In this document: piece after piece, positions 1-12,074 of the stretch | How positions within the stretch are numbered: the stretch's first letter is position 1 | How the letters are laid out: each line of letters begins with the position of its first letter | Source: a virus | DNA length: 25,153 nucleotides | UHGV virus genome: UHGV-0073209 | Reading direction: 5' to 3' (one strand) | Made by a program: the position numbers and the translations under genes | The notes under the pieces: model-generated | Database searches by the model: none | Seen by the model: the letters and a program-made list of their open reading frames with translations, nothing else | What the model was told of the DNA's origin: nothing

Positions 1-49
1 CAGTGGCAGCAAAATGGCAGCAGGGTGGCGGCGCTGCTTTTCTCCTCGA

Positions 50-1057
50 CTACCTGACCTCTTCACGATTATCAAAAGGGTTTAACGCAACGGCAGCATC
101 AAGATGATTGGGGGCGAAATGCGCATACCTCATCGTCATCATGATCGTACTGTGCCCGAGTATCTGCTGAAGCACTAAAATATTCCCCCCACGCATCATA
201 AAGTGACTTGCGAAGGTATGGCGTAGTACATGGGTACGCTGCCCCCTTGGCAACTCAATAGCGGCTCGTGCAAGCGCTGATTTGAATGCTTCGTATGCTG
301 GAGTAAAAAGTGCTCCGCGTTTTTTGGGTAGCAGCTTCTGTAGCTGTTCAGAAATCGGTACAGTTCGATTTTTTTTGCTTTTGGTCTGCGTAAACGTCAA
401 CCGGCCAGGCAGAACCTGAGATTGCTTTAAATCCTGCGCCTCGCTCCACCTTGCGCCGGTCGCCAGGCATATCCGCACTATGACCCCCAAATCCTTATTT
501 GCCGATTGATCGCAGGCCGACAAAAGTCGCACTATCTCCTCATCGTAGAGGAAGGCCAGCTCCTGATCCCCCTCCTTGAATTGCCTGATGCCCGACAGTG
601 GGTTATCGCCCTCCCATTCACCCAACCGCTTCATCTCTGAAAAAACCGCGTGCAGGTACGACTGCTCGCGATTTACCGTCGCCTCACTGAGTTTCTTTTT
701 GCCTTTCTGATTCCACTCACCGGCCAATCGTTTTTCACGATAAACCGCAAATGTATTTTTATCGAAGCGAGACGCGAGGGGATCGCCCAGGCGCTCGCAA
801 ATCGCCAATAACTTCACCTTGCGTTCATCCCCAGATGTTAGCGTTTTGCCGTGCATTTCGTACCAGCGCTCAACGAAAGCAGAAAGCGTCACCGCGCTGT
901 CGTTTACCTCCTGACTAGTTGCGTTGTTCATGGTGCGGCGCTCAAAAGAGAGCGCCTCGCCTTTGGTAGCAAACTGCTTACGAATACGCTTTCCGTCACG
1001 ACCATACGGAAAGCACTGGCATAACCATTTTCCTGATGTGAGCTTACGAACGGTCAT
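50..1057 (-). CDS. int: Tyrosine site-specific integrase (P2 Int-like)
   Basis: N-terminus MTVRKLTSGKW...GRDGKRIRKQFATKGEALSFE resembles P2 Int (MAIKKL...GRNGKRIRRKFDKKSEAVAFE). C-terminal HTFASHFMMRGG...LGHSTIMMTMRYAHF is the tyrosine recombinase catalytic region. The track ORF runs to 1141; I place the start at ATG 1055-1057. Confidence 0.9.
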   Translation of the reverse strand: MTVRKLTSGKWLCQCFPYGRDGKRIRKQFATKGEALSFERRTMNNATSQEVNDSAVTLSAFVERWYEMHGKTLTSGDERKVKLLAICERLGDPLASRFDKNTFAVYREKRLAGEWNQKGKKKLSEATVNREQSYLHAVFSEMKRLGEWEGDNPLSGIRQFKEGDQELAFLYDEEIVRLLSACDQSANKDLGVIVRICLATGARWSEAQDLKQSQVLPGRLTFTQTKSKKNRTVPISEQLQKLLPKKRGALFTPAYEAFKSALARAAIELPRGQRTHVLRHTFASHFMMRGGNILVLQQILGHSTIMMTMRYAHFAPNHLDAAVALNPFDNREEVR

Positions 1058-2240
1058 AATTGAACAAATCCACAAATTTAGGCACTTGCTCTGATTTCCT
1101 CTCCCAGTAACACCCAGACTGAAGCAATGATATGAAATCATCTTGGGTCATTGAGAGTGTACTTGTTGTTATCAGGCGTTTTTTGGTCTCGTCTGGAGTC
1201 AAAAGCTCAACCGTAACAGTACCCGGATCATATGATTGGCTTTCCATGAGGATTGGTGCATCAGTTAGTTTTCTGGGGGTAATTAGACGATTAGGGTTGA
1301 AATCACCAGTAAAGCTTCCTTCAAATGATGCGATGGTCTCGTAACCGGAGAAACAGTCAAATTGTATTTGCAATACCATCGCATGAGGTAATGTTAAAAA
1401 CTCACTCCAATCTGTGTAGCCTAATTTGTCACTATAAAAAGTATCGCCGCGCTGGAACTGGTAAGACGTTCCTTGCGTCCATACATCATAGGTGTTTTTT
1501 TCAAATGTTATTTTAGTTAGTTTAATGTCTAGCTTGCTTTTGAATACTTCTTTGATTGCGAATTTCCATCCGGCTGCATAGCCATCAATAAAGTTTGCAA
1601 TAAGGGCGGTGCTTCTACGAGGCTCTCTTAACGTTCTAAATGTAAGGGATAGTGCTTCCAAATCTTTTTTCAGCGAATCTACTTCGGAAGTGATTTTCTC
1701 TTCATGAATAACATCTAGCTCAGGCGCTTCGTAGGGAATCTCACCAGTCTCTATAAAGGCGATGAACTGTTCTTTGCTTATGATAAAGGCGTTTCGAGCC
1801 CTTGCCTCTTCAATCTTCCTCCACCCCATATTATCCCCTACGCAAAGGAAATATAGGTTTGCAGAAACACCGCCTTTAACAGATAAGTTGTTATTCTTCG
1901 CTAATTCGGTTAAATATGCTTTGTCAGCCTGCTTAAAACCAGTAAAACAGATTTCTAAATTATTTCCTCTTTCCAATTTACGACTAGGGCGTGGCTGCGT
2001 TTTCGGTACGATGGATTCTTTGTCCAAAGTAGCATTAAGCAATTCATCTTCCGACATGAACATTTTCAGAACTCGATCTTTTCTAAAAGTCCTGAATGCC
2101 TTTCGATTAATAGAGTAGCCTTGGAAAAACTCATCTCGCTCAACTACGCGAGTTACACTTTGCCGTGACACCTCTCCTTTGACATTGATGTAATGGAAGA
2201 AAGCATTTTTATCTTCATTGATAAGAGATGAATCAAACAT
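1044..2240 (-). CDS. Hypothetical 398-aa cargo protein: WYL-like N-terminal domain, central BRCT-like domain, unknown C-terminal domain of about 230 aa
   Basis: ATG at 2238-2240 with AAGGAG 6 nt upstream on the minus strand. Residues about 14-57 (FFHYINVKGEVSRQSVTRVVERDEFFQGYSINRKAFRTFRKDRV) fit the WYL-domain pattern ending in RTFRxDRI. Residues about 95-165 (ICFTGF...LSVKGGVSANLYFLCVGDNMGWRKIEEARARNAFIISKEQFIAFI) fit the LigA-type BRCT pattern. Its stop overlaps the int start by 14 nt. Confidence 0.8.
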   Translation of the reverse strand: MFDSSLINEDKNAFFHYINVKGEVSRQSVTRVVERDEFFQGYSINRKAFRTFRKDRVLKMFMSEDELLNATLDKESIVPKTQPRPSRKLERGNNLEICFTGFKQADKAYLTELAKNNNLSVKGGVSANLYFLCVGDNMGWRKIEEARARNAFIISKEQFIAFIETGEIPYEAPELDVIHEEKITSEVDSLKKDLEALSLTFRTLREPRRSTALIANFIDGYAAGWKFAIKEVFKSKLDIKLTKITFEKNTYDVWTQGTSYQFQRGDTFYSDKLGYTDWSEFLTLPHAMVLQIQFDCFSGYETIASFEGSFTGDFNPNRLITPRKLTDAPILMESQSYDPGTVTVELLTPDETKKRLITTSTLSMTQDDFISLLQSGCYWERKSEQVPKFVDLFNYDRS

Positions 2241-2282
2241 TTATCACTCCTTTATTTTTTTAATTGGCTCTAATTCTGTGAA

Positions 2283-2636
2283 TTAATCGTCACCAGTTTT
2301 TACTCGTGGCTTTGATTGCGCAAACGCATCACCAACCGCCTGTATGTTTAAGCGCGCCGCCTCATCCATCGCGCGGTAGTTTTCTATGAGTTTTTTTTCT
2401 TCTTCGCTTTCCGTGACCATGCCATCTGGTTGGAGGGTCCGTTGCCCAGTAAGTACATACAATATATCAACCCCGATTTTTGCCAGTGCCGAGAGGTATT
2501 TTGCATCTGGTGATCTCTCATCTCGTTCGTAGTAGGCCTGAGAACCACGTGACTGTTCTGCCAGTTTGGCAAAATCTGTTTGATTTAATCCGAGTTTATC
2601 CCGCTCCTCGCGAAGCCTGCTTCCGAATGTGGACAT
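2283..2636 (-). CDS. HTH (XRE/Cro-CI type) immunity repressor, P2 C-like by position and fold
   Basis: LREERDKLGLNQTDFAKLAEQSRGSQAYYERDERSPDAKYLSALAKIGVDILYVLTG is a Cro/CI-type helix-turn-helix. It is transcribed divergently from the early operon and lies upstream of int, as P2 C does. Confidence 0.8.
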   Translation of the reverse strand: MSTFGSRLREERDKLGLNQTDFAKLAEQSRGSQAYYERDERSPDAKYLSALAKIGVDILYVLTGQRTLQPDGMVTESEEEKKLIENYRAMDEAARLNIQAVGDAFAQSKPRVKTGDD

Positions 2637-2719
2637 AAATTGCTTTCCGATCTTGACTTGATTACGTTCGTGATCAAAACTAACTCACACCAACAACTAG
2701 CAGATCACAATATACCACT
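2637..2719. promoter_or_regulatory. Divergent lysogenic/early promoter-operator region
   Basis: An 83-bp intergenic region separates the divergent repressor and early genes. TTGACT (-35-like) at 2653-2658. Imperfect 20-bp palindrome TTGATTACGTTCGTGATCAA at 2658-2677 (8 of 10 symmetric positions). TATACC/AATATA lies just upstream of ATG 2720. Confidence 0.45.
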
Positions 2720-2932
2720 ATGACACAAGCACATCATATCCAGAGGTCTCGTACGCCTAAGAATAGCGTCGCCGGTGGGGCGCTACCGTTAAGGCTCTCC
2801 CCAGAAGAGCGCGCAGCCATTGAGGAAATGGCAAAAGCCGAATGCCGCTCTGCTTCAAACATGATTCGTATCGTTTTTTTGCGTGGGCTTGAGGTCATGA
2901 AGCCTGGGCAAGAGGCACACCCAGAAAACTAG
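2720..2932 (+). CDS. Ribbon-helix-helix DNA-binding protein (MobC/Arc-like), first gene of the early operon
   Basis: LRLSPEERAAIEEMAKAECRSASNMIRIVFLRGLE fits a strand-helix-helix pattern. No Shine-Dalgarno; a -10-like element sits 4-9 nt upstream, so it may be leaderless. Confidence 0.5.
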   Translation: MTQAHHIQRSRTPKNSVAGGALPLRLSPEERAAIEEMAKAECRSASNMIRIVFLRGLEVMKPGQEAHPEN

Positions 2933-2951
2933 ACGTGTACCGGGGTGAAAC

Positions 2952-3155
2952 ATGTCAGGCGTAACTATCAATTTAAACGTTGCCGCGCCTTATTTATCTC
3001 TAAAGGAGTATTCCAGGATTACGGGTATTCCGTTTGAGACATGCCGGGGCATGGTGAAGGACGGGCGGATCATCATCCGACCAAAGGAGCTTTCGGGGGG
3101 CAAGGTTGAGGTAAATATGATCGCCATGCTCAAGGATGCCATCGCGAACAGTTAA
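2952..3155 (+). CDS. cox: Cox-like regulatory protein / excisionase
   Basis: PYLSLKEYSRITGIPFETCRGMVKDGRIIIRPK parallels P2 Cox IPYQEFAKLIGKSTGAVRRMIDKGKLPVI. GGGGTG Shine-Dalgarno upstream of ATG 2952. Confidence 0.6.
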   Translation: MSGVTINLNVAAPYLSLKEYSRITGIPFETCRGMVKDGRIIIRPKELSGGKVEVNMIAMLKDAIANS

Positions 3156-3167
3156 TAGAGGCAGGGA

Positions 3168-3431
3168 ATGAATAAACGCTACTCAAAACACGGCAAGTAT
3201 GCGGGAAGTATTCATATCGTGGCGGGCGATAACTTACCTAAAGTCGTTTGGATAAATAAGCACGCTGGAATTTGCTGCGGCTTCACCATCCGCGTATTAC
3301 CGCGCAGGGTAGGCAAGAAGCGTTATCAAATCATGAAAGATGGTGATTCTTTCGGAATTGACTTTGCGTTATCTGAAGCACGCAAAACGATAGATCGTAT
3401 TATTAATAACAACCGCTTCACCATTCATTAA
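3168..3431 (+). CDS. Hypothetical early protein (87 aa)
   Basis: ORF with AGGGA Shine-Dalgarno, tightly packed in the early operon. Confidence 0.6.
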   Translation: MNKRYSKHGKYAGSIHIVAGDNLPKVVWINKHAGICCGFTIRVLPRRVGKKRYQIMKDGDSFGIDFALSEARKTIDRIINNNRFTIH

Positions 3432-3447
3432 ATAACCGAGGCAGAAA

Positions 3448-3864
3448 ATGAAAAGAGAATACGCAGACAAAATTAACTCACTACTGCAATGCTTCCATTT
3501 CAATAAAGAGTTTCTGGAATGGAACCACGATTATTCACTTCAACTGTTGCGTCACGGCGCTTCCCACCTTTATCACTTCGCCATGCTCCAGGGAGAGACA
3601 GACAAAGCCACTTTGGAGGAACTCCGCAGCATTATTACCACCCTCACCAATGGCGAGATCCCTGAGCCATACGATTTGCTCTCACTGGAAGCCGAACAGC
3701 CAGAGCCGATTGACCCAAAAGGAAGGACTATGATGTTTGCTAATCCGCTGGCGGTATCAGTGGAACTTACGCCGGAGATGGTACAACAGCTGAAAGAGAC
3801 AATGGCGAAAATGGCGAATATCCCCCACAGAATGAGAAAGCCAACTCTCTATCCTCAGGGATAG
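3448..3864 (+). CDS. Hypothetical early protein (138 aa)
   Basis: ORF with GAGG Shine-Dalgarno upstream of ATG. Confidence 0.65.
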   Translation: MKREYADKINSLLQCFHFNKEFLEWNHDYSLQLLRHGASHLYHFAMLQGETDKATLEELRSIITTLTNGEIPEPYDLLSLEAEQPEPIDPKGRTMMFANPLAVSVELTPEMVQQLKETMAKMANIPHRMRKPTLYPQG

Positions 3865-3908
3865 GGGGCGAGCCATGTTCAACAAAAAGAAAGCCGGAGA
3901 TAATCCAA

Positions 3909-4181
3909 ATGACTACCACCGCTGATTTACTGGCTTTGCGCCAGAAATTGAGATCAGAAAATAATTCTGCTACAGGGACGAGGACTGGTTTCAGTGCCGA
4001 TCATATTTACAGCCGATCAGGTGCCGCTATTTATCCGGCAATATTAAGTGATATTAACGATAACGGGTTTGAGGTGAGATGTATTAGAACGGGTGCTGTA
4101 TTTACCATTAAACCAAACGGATCCATATGTCACGGACTTATTAAGTCCTTAGAGCGCGAATGGTTCGGCACTAGCAGTTAA
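3909..4181 (+). CDS. Hypothetical early protein (90 aa)
   Basis: ORF with GGAG Shine-Dalgarno upstream of ATG. Confidence 0.55.
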   Translation: MTTTADLLALRQKLRSENNSATGTRTGFSADHIYSRSGAAIYPAILSDINDNGFEVRCIRTGAVFTIKPNGSICHGLIKSLEREWFGTSS

Positions 4182-4254
4182 TTAAATTAGTTCGTTGATT
4201 TATTAACGGCATTCATTTTGCCGGGGATTCGCTTTGCCTTTTTCAGGAGGTCGC

Positions 4255-4479
4255 ATGTCGATCAAGTCAATAAAACTGGATGGCGGAATTAGCGATCCAG
4301 AGTTTGTGGAAATAAGCGCCAACGCACGGAAACACGAGCGCGCTCACGTCCTTGGCATGCTCCGTGATTTTGTCGGTCAGCTGAAAAAGGAAAGCGCCAC
4401 CCCGGAAGAGATTTATTCATCAATCGAACAGTGGGCCAACGCCCGCGAATTAACCATCACTGAGGAAAGCAAACAATGA
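4255..4479 (+). CDS. Hypothetical early protein (74 aa)
   Basis: AGGAGG at 4245-4250, 4 nt before ATG 4255. The track ORF begins at an upstream TTG (4234). The stop overlaps the next start (ATGA). Confidence 0.6.
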   Translation: MSIKSIKLDGGISDPEFVEISANARKHERAHVLGMLRDFVGQLKKESATPEEIYSSIEQWANARELTITEESKQ

Positions 4480-5054
4480 ACCATTTAATGATTGATATTG
4501 AAACGCTCAGCACCCAGCCGAATGCGGTAATTTGCGCGATTGGCGCAGTCTTCTTCGAACCGTCAACCGGAAAAATCGGCCCTTCGTTCTATCAGACCAT
4601 TGATCCGCGTACCTCGCAGAATCGTGGCGCTCACATCTCCGCCGACACAGTGATGTGGTGGCTCCGGCAGGATAAAGAACCTATCAGCGAGCTGGTAGGC
4701 GCGAAGTCGCATGAAATTGAGGTGATGCTGGATTTTGCCAAATTTATTGAAGGCACATTCCCTGAAACCACGAAAAAGAATCTGAAGGTCTGGTGCAAGG
4801 GCGGTTCGTTTGATTTTCCGATCCTCAAATCTGCATTTGAGCGCTCATCGCTCGAAGGCGTGCCTATGCTTCCGTGGGGCTACTGGAATGAGTGCTGTTT
4901 CCGATCGCTGCTAACCGTGGCCGGTGTTATCGGTTACGCCCCCCACCCGCGACGCTCAGTCGCACACAACGCTTTAACCGACGCCATCTATCAGGCCGAG
5001 CAGGTTTGCGAGATCTGGCAGCGCCTGACTTCCCCGCACCTCGAATCATTGTGA
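4476..5054 (+). CDS. DEDDh 3'-5' exonuclease (DnaQ/epsilon-like)
   Basis: Exo I motif MIDIETLS near the N-terminus and Exo III-like HNALTDAIYQAEQV near the C-terminus. Confidence 0.85.
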   Translation: MNHLMIDIETLSTQPNAVICAIGAVFFEPSTGKIGPSFYQTIDPRTSQNRGAHISADTVMWWLRQDKEPISELVGAKSHEIEVMLDFAKFIEGTFPETTKKNLKVWCKGGSFDFPILKSAFERSSLEGVPMLPWGYWNECCFRSLLTVAGVIGYAPHPRRSVAHNALTDAIYQAEQVCEIWQRLTSPHLESL

Positions 5055-5058
5055 GGGC

Positions 5059-6021
5059 ATGACAATGATTAAATCACCCATCAAATGGGCGGGCGGTAAA
5101 ACCCGCGTCATGCCGCAGCTGCTGAAGCATCTGCCGAAAGCCGATTGCCTGATTGAGCCGTTCGTTGGCAGCGGTACCGTGTTTATGAACACGGAATACC
5201 GCCGCTACGTCCTCTGCGATAGCAACCGCGCGCTGATCAATTTCTTTCTTGTATTGAGGGATGATACAGAGCGCCTGATAGCGGTTGCCCGCAATATATT
5301 TCGGGACGGTAACAAAGCAGATAAATATTACTCCGAGCGCGAAAAATTCAATTACATGTCATGGTATGAATCAGAAAAGGATTGCCGATCGACATTATGG
5401 GCGGCGTCCTTTTTGTACCTGAATCGCCACTGCTTCAACGGTCTTTATCGTACAAATCTGGACGGCGGTTTTAATGTGTCATTTGGCCGATATAAACAGC
5501 CATATTTCCCCGAAGCCGAAATGCGCTTATTCGCCGAAAAAGCGCGGGATACCAACGCGCTATTTCTTTGCAATGATTTTCGCACTTCTATTCCGTACAT
5601 CGCGAAGAATCGCCCGGACTCAGTAATTTACTGCGACCCCCCCTATATCCCGGCAAGCAAATCCGCCAATTTCACCGCATACGGCAAGCCGTTTACCCTG
5701 GACGATCATCGTGCTCTGGCTGCAACCCTGCTCGATGCTCATCGCCAGCACGGCACCCGCGCGGTGATATCCAACAGCGATACCCCGGAAACCCGCGAGA
5801 TTTATTCCGCTTTCAACCTCCACGCCTTCAGCGTTCGCCGTTCCGTTAGCGCCAAAAGCCGCGACATGGCCGGTGAAGTGATCGGCGTGATTCCTGATTC
5901 AGTCGACTGCTATACGCGTAGTTGCGCTAGCTGCGAAGACGTCGAGGAATGCTTAGCGCCGACAGAGATTTGGATCGGGTTTGATATGGCCGCCGGATTT
6001 GATAACGGGGAGCCTTTCTGA
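5059..6021 (+). CDS. dam: DNA adenine (N6) methyltransferase, Dam family, with a Cys-rich C-terminal extension
   Basis: IKWAGGK, EPFVGSGTVF, LYLNRHCFNGLYRTN and CDPPY align along the length with E. coli Dam. The start may be ATG 5065, which has GAGGG 7 nt upstream, rather than 5059. Confidence 0.92.
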   Translation: MTMIKSPIKWAGGKTRVMPQLLKHLPKADCLIEPFVGSGTVFMNTEYRRYVLCDSNRALINFFLVLRDDTERLIAVARNIFRDGNKADKYYSEREKFNYMSWYESEKDCRSTLWAASFLYLNRHCFNGLYRTNLDGGFNVSFGRYKQPYFPEAEMRLFAEKARDTNALFLCNDFRTSIPYIAKNRPDSVIYCDPPYIPASKSANFTAYGKPFTLDDHRALAATLLDAHRQHGTRAVISNSDTPETREIYSAFNLHAFSVRRSVSAKSRDMAGEVIGVIPDSVDCYTRSCASCEDVEECLAPTEIWIGFDMAAGFDNGEPF

Positions 6022-6194
6022 TGAACACGCTTGATGCCGTTGTGACGCGAATTCTGGACGTTCGCCCATATCGCCATTTCTGGGTCGTCGAGGTGGAGGT
6101 GCTGTGCTACGGCGATTACAGCAACACGATCATCATCCGCGATAGTGAAAAAGAAGCCCGCCAGGTTAAACCCGGCGACACGGTAACGATCTGA
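6021..6194 (+). CDS. Small hypothetical protein (57 aa), translationally coupled to dam
   Basis: ATG 6021 overlaps the dam stop (ATGA). Below the track length cutoff; found by manual translation (MNTLDAVVTRILDVRPYRHFWVVEVEVLCYGDYSNTIIIRDSEKEARQVKPGDTVTI). Confidence 0.4.
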   Translation: MNTLDAVVTRILDVRPYRHFWVVEVEVLCYGDYSNTIIIRDSEKEARQVKPGDTVTI

Positions 6195-6204
6195 GGTACC
6201 GCAA

Positions 6205-6360
6205 ATGAACGAAGAAACCAATTACCGCCGCTTCTGGCGCAATACCGTGATCTGCTGCGCGCTCTGCTCACTGCTGTTTTGGCTCCCGATGGGCTGTCTC
6301 GCCTTTCGTGTTTTCTCTGTGGTGTGGGAGGCGCTGTGGTTGCTTATTACAACGAAATAG
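6205..6360 (+). CDS. Possible small hydrophobic protein (51 aa)
   Basis: ATG 6205 with GAGGT 7 nt upstream; translation MNEETNYRRFWRNTVICCALCSLLFWLPMGCLAFRVFSVVWEALWLLITTK. Overlaps the methylase start region, so speculative. Confidence 0.25.
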   Translation: MNEETNYRRFWRNTVICCALCSLLFWLPMGCLAFRVFSVVWEALWLLITTK

Positions 6361-7391
6361 ACCCTCACGCAGCACAGCACCTGCGCAACCTTATCGACGC
6401 CGGCCATATTGCGCCGGGCGTCGTTGACACCCGTTCAATTGAGGATGTAACCCCCAATGACCTTATCGGATTCAATCAGTGCCATTTCTTCGCCGGGATC
6501 GGCGGATGGTCGCTTGCCTTACGCCGCGCAGGATGGCCAGACAGTCGCCCGGCATGGACAGCATCATGCCCATGCCAGCCTTTCAGCGCGGCAGGCAAAG
6601 GACTTGGGTTTGCTGACGAGCGGCACTTATGGCCCTCCGCACATTGGCTTGTCGGCCAGCGCCGCCCTGTCGTGGTTTTTGGCGAGCAATCTGGCAGCGC
6701 TGACGCAGCGGACTGGATCGACCTTGTACAAGCTGACGTGGAAGCCCTGGGCTATGCCTTCGGGGCGGTTGCGTTTCCGTCTGCGAGCGTCGGCGCGCCG
6801 CACCAGAGAGACCGCGCTTATTGGGTGGCCGACGCCGGCCGCGAACGAGTTCGAACCGAAGGACTTGCAAAGGCTCTTGGAGAGAAGGGAGAAATTCGCG
6901 GCCAAGCATGGAAACAACGGGTTTGGCCTGACACTAGGGCAGGCGGTGCATCTGTTTGCGGGCTGGCCGACACCGACGGCAACGGACGGGAAAGGCGGTT
7001 ATCAGGGTGGACGAATCCGCAATGGGAAGCTATCGACGGACAGGCTAGATGTGGCTGCGCAGCTTGCGGGCTGGCCGACGCCGACCACGAGCAACGACCG
7101 CTCGCCATGTCCGCAAGAGGCTATGCGGACGTATCGCGACAATGGAACAAAGATTCAGAAGCGGCTTCAGGATGTAGCTGCGTTATGCGGCCCGGCCCGG
7201 TTAACGGCTTCTGGAGAGATGCTGATTGGCTCCACGGCCGGGATGGATGGTGGAGGCCAGTTAGACCCGGATCATTCCCGCTGGCTGATGGGATTCCCGC
7301 CAGAGTGGGAAGAGTGCGCGCCTACGGAAACGCTATCAACATTGAAGCGGCGGCAGCGTTCATAAAAGCGTATATGGCGGCGGAACAATGA
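6336..7391 (+). CDS. C5-cytosine DNA methyltransferase (phage Dcm-like); conserved motifs split across two reading frames
   Basis: In the annotated frame: YYNEIDPHAAQHLRNLI, FFAGIGG (motif I), PCQPFS (motif IV), VVVFGEQ (motif VI-like), GAPHQRDRAYWVA (motif VIII), AYGNAINIEAAAAFIKAY (motif X-like). Start taken as GTG 6336, 5 nt after GGGAGG; the track ORF starts at TTG 6279. The overlapping ORF 6457-7365 carries three GWPTP motifs and RWLMGFPPEW. Confidence 0.7.
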   Translation: MVAYYNEIDPHAAQHLRNLIDAGHIAPGVVDTRSIEDVTPNDLIGFNQCHFFAGIGGWSLALRRAGWPDSRPAWTASCPCQPFSAAGKGLGFADERHLWPSAHWLVGQRRPVVVFGEQSGSADAADWIDLVQADVEALGYAFGAVAFPSASVGAPHQRDRAYWVADAGRERVRTEGLAKALGEKGEIRGQAWKQRVWPDTRAGGASVCGLADTDGNGRERRLSGWTNPQWEAIDGQARCGCAACGLADADHEQRPLAMSARGYADVSRQWNKDSEAASGCSCVMRPGPVNGFWRDADWLHGRDGWWRPVRPGSFPLADGIPARVGRVRAYGNAINIEAAAAFIKAYMAAEQ

Positions 7392-9873: not shown

Positions 9874-10431
9874 ATGAAGCATTTCAGCACTAAAGCAATC
9901 AGATCAGTTATCGCCGAAATGAACCGGCAGGACGAGAAATGGGGAGCTGACCGCGATCAACATCCGTTCGTCTGGCAAACCATTCTTAGCGGAGAGGTCG
10001 GCGAATTCAGCCAGGCAATTTTACATGATGAATTTGGAGGCCATAAATCAGGAACGGCACGCGAAGAGATGGTGCAGATCGCCGCCGTCGCTCTCCAGAT
10101 TATCGAATATTACGATCGCCGCTGCGCGCCTGCGGCGGAATCTGAACAAGTTCACCCGGCGCTCGCCATGCCGGCCATCCCGGCGGGGCGTGAAAAAATC
10201 GGCGGCTGCGACTGGCTGGACTGGAATCAGCTGTCAGCGCTCGGTCTTATTGTCCGCATTAACGCAGAAATTCTTCACCCGCTTGGACTGGCAATTTTCC
10301 GTGATCCGGCTTCCGGCATCTCAGCGGGGGCCATGATTTCGCCAGATGGTAAATGGGAGTATGCGCCTGATGTTATTGATGGGCTGCGGGTAAGACTCTC
10401 CGATCACTCAGGAAAGCACGGTCACTTTTGA
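9874..10431 (+). CDS. Hypothetical protein (185 aa); N-terminus possibly a MazG-like all-alpha NTP pyrophosphohydrolase fold
   Basis: Starts 2 nt after the gpA stop with GAGAGG upstream. MNRQDEKWGADRDQHPFVWQTILSGEVGEFSQAI resembles the MazG-like EExxE helix pattern; this call is tentative. Confidence 0.65.
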   Translation: MKHFSTKAIRSVIAEMNRQDEKWGADRDQHPFVWQTILSGEVGEFSQAILHDEFGGHKSGTAREEMVQIAAVALQIIEYYDRRCAPAAESEQVHPALAMPAIPAGREKIGGCDWLDWNQLSALGLIVRINAEILHPLGLAIFRDPASGISAGAMISPDGKWEYAPDVIDGLRVRLSDHSGKHGHF

Positions 10432-10452
10432 CCGTGCTGGCCATTCTATCGA

Positions 10453-10491
10453 GCACCGCCATTTTTGGCGGTGCTGCAGGTGTTATTTTTT
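10453..10491 (+). terminator. Possible hairpin / weak intrinsic terminator between the 185-aa ORF and the second methylase
   Basis: 8-bp stem GCACCGCC/GGCGGTGC (10453-10460 and 10467-10474) with loop ATTTTT, then a T6 run at 10486-10491. The T-tract is displaced from the stem, so non-canonical. Confidence 0.3.
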
Positions 10492-10507
10492 GGGGAGCGA
10501 GAAGGCT

Positions 10508-11203
10508 ATGAGTTATCTGGGAAGCAAAGCGGCCAGCGGTGTTTATCAAAAAATCATCGCTGAAATGCCGCCGCACGATACCTACATTGAAACGCATTTA
10601 GGCGGCGGCGCGATCATGCTGCGCAAACCTCCGGCAAAAGTGAATTGGGGGATCGATATCGACCCGCAAACCATCGAGGCGTTTAACCAGAGCAACCCTG
10701 ATTTTCTGGATAGGATGGCGGACACCCTATTTATTGATGTTGGGGATGCCGTCGAGTTCTTGTGTTGTTTCGATTACGCCTCCGCCGGCCGCGTCTTAAT
10801 TTATTCTGATCCGCCTTATCTCCATGAAACGCGCTCCAGCTCCGCGCGCTATCGGCATGAGTACACCGTTGGTGATCATTACCGCCTGCTGGGATTACTC
10901 TGCTCGATGCCGGAAAACGTGAGCGTAATCGTATCGGGGTATCCTTCTTCGGTTTATGACAACGCCCTGCCGCGCTGGCGCAGCAAGGAGTTTCAGGCCA
11001 TGACGCGCGGCGGCGTTCGTACAGAGAAAATCTGGATGAACTACCCGGAAGGCCGGGCGTATTCGCACGCGTTCGCCGGTAAAGACTACAACGATCGCTA
11101 TCGGATTAAACGAAAAGCGCAGAGATGGAAGGAAAAATTTGCAGCGTTACCACCCGCCGAGAGGTTGGCGATCATGGTGGCGCTTGGTGAGGTCGAAATT
11201 TGA
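10508..11203 (+). CDS. Second N6-adenine DNA methyltransferase, Dam/D12-class, small phage type
   Basis: N-terminal YLGSKAASGV...IETHLGGGAIML and LIYSDPPYLHETR (DPPY motif). Start placed at ATG 10508; the track ORF starts at an upstream alternative codon (10490). Confidence 0.8.
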   Translation: MSYLGSKAASGVYQKIIAEMPPHDTYIETHLGGGAIMLRKPPAKVNWGIDIDPQTIEAFNQSNPDFLDRMADTLFIDVGDAVEFLCCFDYASAGRVLIYSDPPYLHETRSSSARYRHEYTVGDHYRLLGLLCSMPENVSVIVSGYPSSVYDNALPRWRSKEFQAMTRGGVRTEKIWMNYPEGRAYSHAFAGKDYNDRYRIKRKAQRWKEKFAALPPAERLAIMVALGEVEI

Positions 11204-11321
11204 TTACGTTATTTAATGGAAGAATGATTGTTGTGTGGTTGATGTTTGCCACTAGTATTGCTATTGTCTATTCATTGTTTGATGCTTGTTTGAGTCTAAA
11301 TAGAAATCTAATGGTGAAAAT

Positions 11322-11675
11322 ATGTTAAATAATCAGGATTATGCTTTCATTAACAATACAGTAAATTCAATTAAATCAACAATGATCAGCCTTGCTAGTG
11401 AGTACGGCCCTGATTATTGTTCAGATTTTCTGATTACGTTCGAATCAATTAAAAACAATACGAGTCGGCTACGACTAACGGATGTGACCATTAACGAATA
11501 CATATCGCTTATTCGTGGTCATAACATGAACGTTCAGAGCCATCCACAAGGATTGCTGGTACAAGCTCACGTTAGCTCGATTTTGCTGGCTCCGAATGAT
11601 GCTGTGGCCCTATCGAATTCTCTCCAGATGTTTCGTGGCCGCGCAGCCCTCAACGGCGATTACGAGAACATCTAA
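11322..11675 (+). CDS. Hypothetical protein (117 aa) encoded in an AT-rich island
   Basis: A 117-codon ORF in DNA of roughly one-third GC, where chance ORFs are unlikely. GGTGA Shine-Dalgarno-like upstream; AT-rich 118-bp upstream region. No recognisable domain. Confidence 0.6.
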   Translation: MLNNQDYAFINNTVNSIKSTMISLASEYGPDYCSDFLITFESIKNNTSRLRLTDVTINEYISLIRGHNMNVQSHPQGLLVQAHVSSILLAPNDAVALSNSLQMFRGRAALNGDYENI

Positions 11676-11708
11676 GCACGAAACGAAATGGTTTTCTATC
11701 GCGCAAAC

Positions 11709-11728
11709 TTGCACAAATTTGCACAATT
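11709..11728. promoter_or_regulatory. Tandem direct repeat TTGCACAA(A/T)T x2 near cos; possible terminase or regulator binding site
   Basis: TTGCACAAAT then TTGCACAATT, adjacent, in the non-coding block between the cargo region and portal gene. Confidence 0.3.
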
Positions 11729-11820
11729 TTTGAAACGATGTTTTTGCTATGCAGCGCCAGCACTGGCGGGGCATGGGCAGTCTGCGCAGAGTGCACAAAA
11801 AGAGGCATGTTTAGCGCGCA

Positions 11821-11840
11821 GGCGAGGCGGGGGAGCAAGC
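11821..11840. other. Putative cos site (cohesive-end region)
   Basis: GGCGAGGCGGGGGAGCAAGC; its first 12 nt match the P2 cohesive-end sequence as I recall it (GGCGAGGCGGGG...). Flanked by GCGCGC on both sides and located between the hotspot and Q, where cos lies in P2. Confidence 0.5.
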
Positions 11841-12074
11841 GCGCGCTTTGGGGGTAGGGAAGGGGTCGGTATACCTCGCCAAAAGCTGCCTGCCGGGCGC
11901 GCACTTTCGCGGTGCATCCGGCGAGCGCGTAGGAAAAAGCCCGCCAGAGTGGCGCTGGCTGCGTCTGGTTGGTGATATGACATTGAAGTGTTGCAGGTTG
12001 GCCGACATGGCCAGGAATGGTGATGCTGCAGGTCGGTACTGCACCGCCGGGAATGGCAGTGCGGTACCTTCAGA

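Follow-up and report, generated by a model that had tools for sequence, protein, structure and literature searches.

The rexAB genes downstream of cI in phage lambda are a classical example of a moron, or lysogenic-conversion gene, in an immunity operon, and the classical definition of a moron includes a promoter and a terminator of its own. Among phages related to P2, a hotspot for defence genes between cI and the integrase gene has been described in K139-like phages of Vibrionaceae (Rousset et al. 2022, PMC9122126), and a minor int-primase hotspot accounts for 8% of P2 defence systems, with rapid swapping at P2 hotspots (PMC13586616). WYL domains, in turn, have been described as ligand sensors of defence systems, with WYL-BRCT and WYL-TerB fusions being listed (Makarova et al. 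2014, PMC4012209, citing Anantharaman et al. 2012). Here, we analysed 25,153 nucleotides of the virus genome UHGV-0073209 (the whole stretch is referred to as the window), in which a sharp low-GC island at positions 1058–2282 holds a single gene, hereafter called cargo, between the genes for the immunity repressor C and the integrase Int. A first-pass annotation had taken this island for a moron that was recently inserted into the lysogeny operon.

The island is, with very little doubt, an accessory cassette in a variable slot between C and int of a P2-like (Peduoviridae) Klebsiella/Raoultella prophage. Used as a probe in a viral contig collection, the repressor recovered 38 loci, in which homologues of C, int, Cox and Arc were located. 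Two of these have an empty slot, with 23 bp from the C stop to the int ATG: L013 and L021, whose integrases are 87% and 77% identical to that of the window. In blastn against L013, window positions 2267–2523 and 70–1058 align to L013 positions 5105–5361 and 5368–6356, and since these homology blocks are only 6 bp apart in the empty-slot relative, the insert corresponds to approximately 1059–2266 (minus strand). DNA homology between the window and its relatives ends at ~1058, at the int ATG, and at ~2267–2284, just past the C stop. The comparison with P2-like prophages lacking the insert, which the first-pass annotation had suggested as a check, thus found such prophages in L013 and L021 and fixed the boundaries; and the claim of a moron-type cassette inserted in the lysogeny operon is borne out by the empty slots, the homology breakpoints, and the unrelated cargos beside integrases of 95–97% identity.

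What occupies the slot in other phages? Across L008–L032, the C–int interval ranges from 23 bp to 1.9 kb and holds about ten unrelated gene sets. Next to integrases 95.5% (L008) and 96–97% (L010, L011) identical to that of the window lie a 207-aa signal-peptide protein and a 244-aa membrane protein, respectively. Other loci contain a transmembrane protein that comes close to the Pfam WYL threshold (L009), a pair of proteins of 117 and 140 aa (L012), a 174-aa short homologue of the N-terminal half of the cargo protein (L014), a secreted 145-aa protein (L018), or a TerB-like+BRCT protein together with a BRCT+WYL protein (L020). Known or candidate defence genes are represented by PD-Lambda-1 (DUF4041+T5orf172; PADLOC E 1e-116) in L015, L016 and L019, and by Abi_alpha/PDC-S47 (E 5e-63), accompanied by a secreted protein, in L022, L024 and L025; a secreted protein alone is found in L023, and two secreted proteins in L026–L032. 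All slot cargos are on the C/int strand, at a GC content of 0.31–0.45 versus 44–52% in the flanks. These empty and alternative slots contradict universal carriage of cargo by close relatives, and the gene is rarer than the phage backbone, with 11 members in its 90%-identity cluster, where int has 473 and the portal protein 1777. A megablast search of window positions 1–4500 against the phage collection gave no match across int–cargo–C and retrieved only downstream early genes (3164–4500), from Klebsiella phage 3LV2017; positions 1–2720 had no match among complete E. coli genomes.

The minus strand of the window carries, in this order, C, a leader, cargo and int; on the plus strand, divergent early genes of the Arc-like and Cox-like types extend from 2720. 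C (2283–2636; 117 aa), the upstream flank, is a C-type helix-turn-helix (HTH) repressor (Pfam HTH_3 E 8.6e-7; PHROG transcriptional repressor families), and the downstream flank int (50–1057; 335 aa) encodes a P2-type tyrosine integrase (Pfam Int_N E 6e-32, Phage_integrase E 3e-23). In between, cargo (1044–2240) encodes an uncharacterised protein of 398 aa in which a WYL-like barrel and a BRCT domain are followed by a C-terminal domain. Its AT-rich leader of 42 bp (2241–2282; 26% GC) reads TAA-ttcacagaattagagccaattaaaaaaataAAGGAGtgataa-ATG and includes a strong Shine-Dalgarno sequence, AAGGAG, at 2252–2247, 6 nt ahead of the ATG. At the other end of the gene, ...AATTATGACCGTTCGTAA, the last 14 nt (1044–1057) are the first 14 nt of int in another frame, and the final cargo codons (..Y D R S stop) come from the int 5′ end. 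The resulting tail, ATGACCGTYCGTAA, is common to L001, L055 and L057 and occurs as a variant in L066.

Given the shared strand, the 42-bp gap, the lack of a terminator and the strong ribosome-binding site of its own, cargo is likely to be co-transcribed with C and int from the lysogenic promoter. Since the cargo stop overlaps the int start, translation of int is probably coupled to that of cargo. Scanning C–cargo–int for promoters and terminators revealed nothing above shuffled expectation and no terminator between the three genes; one weak promoter-like match in the leader (9/12; 1 observed vs 4.3 expected) could speak against co-transcription. An antisense ORF of 118 aa within cargo (1762–2118, plus strand) was treated as a by-product of the AT-rich coding strand. 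The rest of the window is a P2-like genome, in which a Dam-type methylase and gpA precede a short accessory region, followed by the genes for portal, terminase and capsid. Exact look-ups of window proteins point to Klebsiella/Raoultella, the cargo protein itself having the exact sequence of BBQ77828.1 (Raoultella ornithinolytica) and of a Caudoviricetes metagenome record.

By eye, the junction sequences show neither flanking repeats nor mobility genes, no repeat search having been run. The slot of L011 contains, at 2146–2529 and 2563–2916, a duplicated, diverged int 5′ fragment (aa 1–87, 47% identical; 122 nt at 84%) and, after it, an ORF of 117 aa with the int-overlap tail (..DDRP stop) at its end; the duplicate is likely a scar left when cassettes were exchanged through recombination inside the 5′ end of int. 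In L057 (4356–4985) and L065 (3351–3953), a 200–209-aa Flk_N-domain protein is placed between the repressor and the cargo homologue; the presence of both proteins together indicates that the slot is able to hold stacked cargos.

In base composition, the island (GC 0.394) departs from the window as a whole (0.551) and from positions 2283–25153 (0.561). Among all sliding segments of 1225 bp (n=23,929; mean 0.552, sd 0.056), the minimum of 0.393 starts at 1063, which makes the island the most AT-rich segment of its length in the 25 kb. Blocks of 60 nt within 1440–1920 measure 0.27–0.48, close to the 30–48% read off in the first-pass annotation. A two-breakpoint maximum-likelihood fit over positions 1–6000 placed the island edges at 1021 and 2302, with a log-likelihood gain of 24 vs no break and a 2-log-unit support of 957–1126 for the left and 2262–2410 for the right edge; the gene-based edges 1058 and 2282 are ~2 log units or less from the optimum. 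Two further details of that annotation fared less well. Long A/T runs do occur, but their enrichment is only mild, 6 of the 43 W-runs of at least 8 nt falling inside the island, which represents 4.9% of the sequence. Nor is backbone composition fully regained at the repressor: C (GC 0.480, with 0.43 at the third codon position, GC3) and int (0.512), like the early region as a whole (0.42–0.53), are lower in GC than the late genes (0.57–0.63).

Codon positions tell a similar story. The cargo ORF has a GC content of 0.399 (0.449/0.366/0.383 at positions 1/2/3), and its GC3 is the lowest among genes of at least 100 aa (mean of the others 0.645, sd 0.095; z = −2.75). Whereas the first two positions are reduced as well, the largest deviation is at the third, so amino-acid composition alone is insufficient to explain the low GC content. 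The codon-adaptation index, computed with the window's own genes as reference, is low for cargo (0.551), yet several short early genes score alike. With these qualifications, the observation of a low-GC island is confirmed. The second lowest-GC segment of the window, 3102–4326 (44.9%), covers small early genes of 87, 138 and 90 aa (DUF4761-like), of which the 90-aa ORF at 3909–4181 has a GC3 of 0.385, on par with cargo, and the third is 10526–11750 (46.9%), in the accessory region between gpA and portal.

Does the low GC content date the insertion? Recent horizontal acquisition from a low-GC donor, with a composition that has not yet ameliorated, would fit the strong contrast that is greatest at third positions (GC3 0.38 vs 0.64), the patchy distribution whereby the nearest int relatives (95–97%) lack the gene, and the small cluster of 11 members at 90% identity. 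We nevertheless regard this as improbable. A sister phage (L001/L002) is 96.5% identical to the window over positions 1–3432, and the synonymous divergence (dS) between the window and L001 is 0.158 for cargo as opposed to 0.109 for int and 0.121 for C. As the dS of cargo is no smaller than that of its neighbours, the gene must have been present in the common ancestor with L001 and is older than this split. Moreover, homologues reside in the same slot of more distant phages, namely in two metagenomic loci (L055: cargo 86%, int 90%, C 67% identical; L057: cargo 67%, int 91%, with a repressor of a different family), in Yersinia proxima (L046: cargo 52%, int 72%, C 56%), in Serratia nevei (L066: cargo 49%) and in Pectobacterium (L065: cargo 48%). 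Each of these copies is 9–13 GC points below its own int (0.35–0.40 vs 0.47–0.52), and L001, L055, L057 and L066 have the same overlap of cargo stop and int start as the window. A low-GC donor lineage was not found, all full-length homologues being from Enterobacterales or other gamma-proteobacteria. With regard to the age of the insertion, the first-pass annotation thus finds no support.

Alternatively, low GC may be kept by selection or mutation bias acting on accessory genes—H-NS-type xenogeneic silencing and weak codon-usage selection being candidates—and would then be silent on the origin of the gene. Each slot cargo is AT-rich (0.31–0.45) regardless of family or host, and the cargo family lies ~10 points below its flanks across hosts, including an Oceanisphaera homologue with a GC content of 0.52 in a 60%-GC contig. 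The offset is not universal, though: a Serratia rubidaea copy has a GC content of 0.517 in a locus of 0.509. This explanation is compatible with the cassette reading, as it accounts for the persistence of the low GC content and not for the presence of the gene, and we consider it possible without favouring it.

From these comparisons, cargo appears to belong to an old gene family that has remained AT-rich while moving between accessory slots of P2-like phages, rather than to be a fresh import, which fits the published accounts of rapid exchange at P2 hotspots (PMC13586616) and of the cI–integrase hotspot in K139-like phages (PMC9122126). Because this family and all slot cargos are persistently low in GC, the GC content provides no date for the insertion; it would instead reflect a pool of AT-rich, interchangeable cargo genes that recombination at the conserved flanks moves in and out. 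A homologue in E. coli (52% identical) sits in a different slot, at the other prophage end, by a hok-like gene and ogr/D and next to the host genes tamB-ytfP. It was found in 1 of 5,426 complete E. coli genomes, and its C-terminal end differs from the int-overlap tail. The hok/gef-like toxin gene beside this homologue (7351–7496 in L003–L007) lies at the ogr end of P2-like prophages, some of which are degraded.

Is cargo a functional gene at all? One might suspect a chance ORF in an AT-rich spacer or a decaying remnant, considering that no Pfam family matches at gathering score and that all database entries carry the label 'hypothetical' or 'BRCT domain-containing'. This reading is refuted by the conservation data and retains a negligible probability: full-length homologues (n=26) range from 97% to 43% identity with 60 invariant columns, and the dN/dS of the gene is 0.08. 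Confident domain models and the strong ribosome-binding site ahead of the ATG argue in the same direction. cargo is an intact, conserved gene under purifying selection. PHROG 36782 matches the protein over its full length (E 2.5e-74). A tblastn search against 50,697 phage records yielded matches to the N-terminal half only, and a profile search of genome contigs with the family alignment returned 4 loci, too few for a taxonomic census.

An AlphaFold (AF2) model, based on an alignment of 24 sequences (mean pLDDT 72), consists of three modules connected by disordered linkers. The first is a predicted five-strand beta-barrel (aa 13–61; 2058–2204, minus strand) with the motif QGYS...RTFRKDRV. In hhalign, it matches the WYL domain of the transmembrane slot protein of L009 with a probability of 79% (E 1.6e-5), the latter domain itself being near-threshold (21.4 vs 21.8 bits), and a profile of the barrel module matches the same WYL-type domain at E 6.5e-4. 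Pfam WYL (PF13280) does not match the cargo protein at E<=0.1, and PDB matches of the barrel to the WYL domain of PafC are non-significant (E 1.7); for these reasons, the modelled barrel is best labelled WYL-like rather than WYL. The second module (aa 94–165; 1746–1961, minus strand) is a BRCT domain of the RFC1/LigA type. While its Pfam BRCT (PF00533) score of 17.9 bits stays under the gathering score of 21.3, several homologues have a precomputed PF00533 match, the family profile matches the BRCT domains of RFC1 and LigA at E 6e-5 to 1e-4, and the model has the BRCT fold (a beta-alpha-beta sandwich). T100, G101 and K142 are invariant or nearly so, at positions that form the phosphate pocket in RFC1-type BRCT domains.

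The third module, a beta-rich C-terminal domain (C-domain) of ~210 aa (aa 186–398; 1047–1685, minus strand), was modelled alone with a pLDDT of 79 and a pTM of 0.69 as a helix followed by a beta-rich body. Its alignment contains 36 invariant columns. Profile searching of 1.84 billion cluster representatives identified 703 relatives at E<=1e-3 (352 at E<=1e-10), mostly standalone proteins of 150–230 aa that form ~700 clusters at 50% identity. Scans of the domain and of 49 distant relatives with Pfam, NCBIfam and PHROG produced no named family, and the domain had no PDB fold match and only one uncharacterised phage protein as a match in BFVD. Fused to its relatives are BRCT (4/49), SWIM zinc finger (6/49) and WYL (1/49) modules, and TerB-like repeats were read by eye in some of the sequences. 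As judged from gene and domain arrangements, the C-domain is linked to BRCT in three ways, that is, by fusion, by a split two-gene version, and by adjacency. In the split version (L050/L051), an S24-type repressor gene precedes two overlapping genes, the first for a 177-aa WYL-like+BRCT protein (in L050 31% identical to cargo residues 18–173, E 5e-20) and the second for a 226-aa C-domain protein, and in L060, a standalone C-domain member adjoins a gene for a 297-aa BRCT protein. Beside the split version, positions 5804–8549 of L050 hold a DUF2326 + MC6/MC8 + CTD12 cluster and then an integrase gene, a suspected conflict or defence island.

The N-terminal half of the cargo protein also exists by itself. 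Peduoviridae of E. coli, Yersinia, Burkholderia, Mannheimia and Vibrio frequently encode this short WYL-like+BRCT form (PHROG 2561), which is homologous to cargo residues 15–171 (30–38% identity, E values as low as 1e-24) and is located next to ogr/D/att or, in Vibrio phage PV94, between cI and int. No C-domain gene was found near the short form in the phages examined (E. coli, Yersinia, Burkholderia, Vibrio), and the idea that the C-domain exists there as a neighbouring gene was rejected on that comparison. Several of the short proteins (~160 aa) are labelled 'DNA ligase', and one 'putative exonuclease' (L052 3486–3968, i.e. Escherichia phage 500465-1 gp44; Mannheimia NC_008201.1, NC_028898.1, NC_047750.1). 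Only the BRCT part resembles LigA, so that these proteins are not ligases and the labels are misleading. In the cargo protein, residues 63–162 match positions 552–652 of the 656-position, ligase-derived profile PHROG 3869, which is the BRCT region only; ligase adenylation/nucleotidyl-transferase and OB-fold domains are absent, and no other Pfam domain was detected in the cargo protein. LigA models of NCBIfam matched 3–5 of 49 family members (matched regions not inspected).

What, then, might be the role of the cargo protein? The overall explanation we favour, with moderate confidence, is that of a single-gene accessory cassette expressed in the lysogen, which acts as a defence or exclusion factor and owes its low GC content to the cargo pool. 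Taken separately, the function as a prophage-expressed defence or superinfection-exclusion factor, as suggested by the domains of the protein and by the company it keeps in the slot, is plausible but put forward tentatively. Transcribed with C and int from the lysogenic promoter, the protein would be made in the lysogen, where the WYL-like barrel and the RFC1/LigA-type BRCT domain would recognise a nucleic-acid cue, e.g. 5′-phosphorylated ends or nicks in phage DNA that is entering the cell or being replicated. The WYL-like/BRCT module would then control, localise or release a putative activity of the C-domain. More speculatively still, cargo may be the fused form of an undescribed one- or two-gene antiviral system, expressed from a P2-like immunity operon and composed of a WYL-like/BRCT sensor of DNA ends or nicks and an effector without a known fold.

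Several observations weigh against a role in defence. PADLOC has no curated defence-protein model that covers most of the cargo protein; its only hit, PDC-S48 (E 4e-5), aligns residues 62–164 to profile positions 303–406 of 411 and thus the BRCT part. Literature searches on BRCT or WYL domains in connection with phage defence yielded no study of the cargo family. (A text match to 'BRCT' in an integron paper turned out to be a false match to 'BRiCs'.) The C-domain has no recognisable catalytic motif, Pfam family or structural neighbour, which makes an effector role a guess. The short form without a C-domain gene nearby implies that the N-terminal module has an independent function and is not necessarily just a sensor. 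Furthermore, the slot also accommodates secreted and membrane proteins without an assigned role, so position in the slot is no proof of defence, and the tight linkage of cargo and int in several genera might reflect a role in the lysogeny of the phage itself.

The latter possibility is the main rival to defence: cargo would serve the lysogeny/induction circuit as a sensor of DNA damage or DNA ends that modulates C, Int or excision, the short C being without a self-cleaving peptidase domain. WYL and BRCT domains commonly occur in proteins that sense DNA damage, albeit matches of the barrel to PafBC-type WYL domains are weak. In line with such a role, the gene is inside the C–int operon and its 14-nt overlap with int recurs in at least five diverged phages, the split version in L050 likewise comes directly after a repressor, and the short form is found by ogr or att in other Peduoviridae. 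Yet, with many close relatives having an empty slot or an unrelated cargo, the gene is not needed for lysogeny; the E. coli homologue is at the other prophage end, by a hok-like gene in degraded prophages; and known defence genes populate the slot in relatives. We consider a lysogeny role unlikely and retain the defence or exclusion factor as our working proposal.

Some features outside the slot deserve mention. Between gpA and portal (9874–11975), the P2 accessory region of the window contains four ORFs, namely a DUF7415 protein of 185 aa, a methyltransferase-like protein of 237 aa (PADLOC MTase_II E 1e-23, weak PD-Lambda-5_B), a 117-aa ORF with a GC content of 0.415, and a 95-aa ORF. Positions 5059–6021 encode a Dam-type (D12 class) adenine methyltransferase, followed at 6457–7365 by a 302-aa ORF without a family match; the equivalent position of the sister phage L001 holds a PF00145 cytosine methyltransferase, and this looks like a further variable spot. 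In the 35.3-kb L001 contig (Logan ERR4229064; 7184–9930), int is directly followed by ogr and gpD, genes of the opposite prophage end. It hence looks like the circular or excised (attP) form, which suggests that the phage was active in that sample.

As a compositional finding, the island is ordinary, representing one more accessory cassette in the repressor–integrase slot of a P2-related prophage, and hotspots of this kind were known from Vibrionaceae phages and, on statistical grounds, from P2-like prophages. What the present comparison contributes is to establish the enterobacterial C–int interval as a hotspot of this type, for which the exact breakpoints, the empty sites and a list of occupants are now available, and to show that low GC is here a lasting feature of the cargo pool that should not be read as evidence for recent transfer. 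In addition, the 'DNA ligase' label that many Peduoviridae genomes attach to short homologues is corrected, and an uncharacterised family, in which a WYL-like barrel and an RFC1/LigA-type BRCT domain are combined with a widespread domain without family or fold assignment, emerges as a candidate for a new prophage-encoded defence. While the island itself is of modest interest, the family, and the C-terminal domain especially, is a reasonable candidate for experiments.

Compared to the known systems, the slot most closely resembles the K139-like hotspot, with which it shares its location in a P2-related phage, flanked by the immunity repressor and int, and the hypervariable content between conserved flanks, including known defence genes (here PD-Lambda-1 and Abi_alpha). 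Vibrio phage PV94 even has a short homologue of cargo in exactly that hotspot. In contrast to the K139-like case, the present slot is enterobacterial (Klebsiella/Raoultella, Yersinia, Serratia, Pectobacterium) and lies next to a C-type repressor of 117 aa. cargo is not among the systems named in the papers on the K139-like and P2 hotspots, and a text search for BRCT in both (PMC9122126, PMC13586616) came back empty. With classical morons such as rexAB, cargo has in common that it is an extra gene of lower, deviant GC content, dispensable, and placed for prophage expression; unlike them, it has no demonstrable promoter or terminator, appears to ride the C–int transcript, and overlaps int.

At the protein level, the short WYL-like+BRCT proteins of PHROG 2561 share the homologous N-terminal module and the accessory positions in P2-like phages and differ in being without the 210-aa C-terminal domain. 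Relative to the BRCT domains of RFC1 (p140) and LigA, the cargo protein is devoid of a clamp-loader or ligase catalytic module, and DNA-end binding is putative. From the WYL sensors of defence systems, it is set apart by a barrel that scores under every Pfam WYL threshold, and lacking an HTH, it is not a transcription factor of the BrxR/CapW type. It nonetheless resembles these sensors in the joining of a small Sm-like barrel to BRCT, in the fusion of C-domain relatives to TerB-like, SWIM and WYL modules, and in the pairing of a TerB-like+BRCT protein with a BRCT+WYL protein in the very same slot of a related phage (L020).

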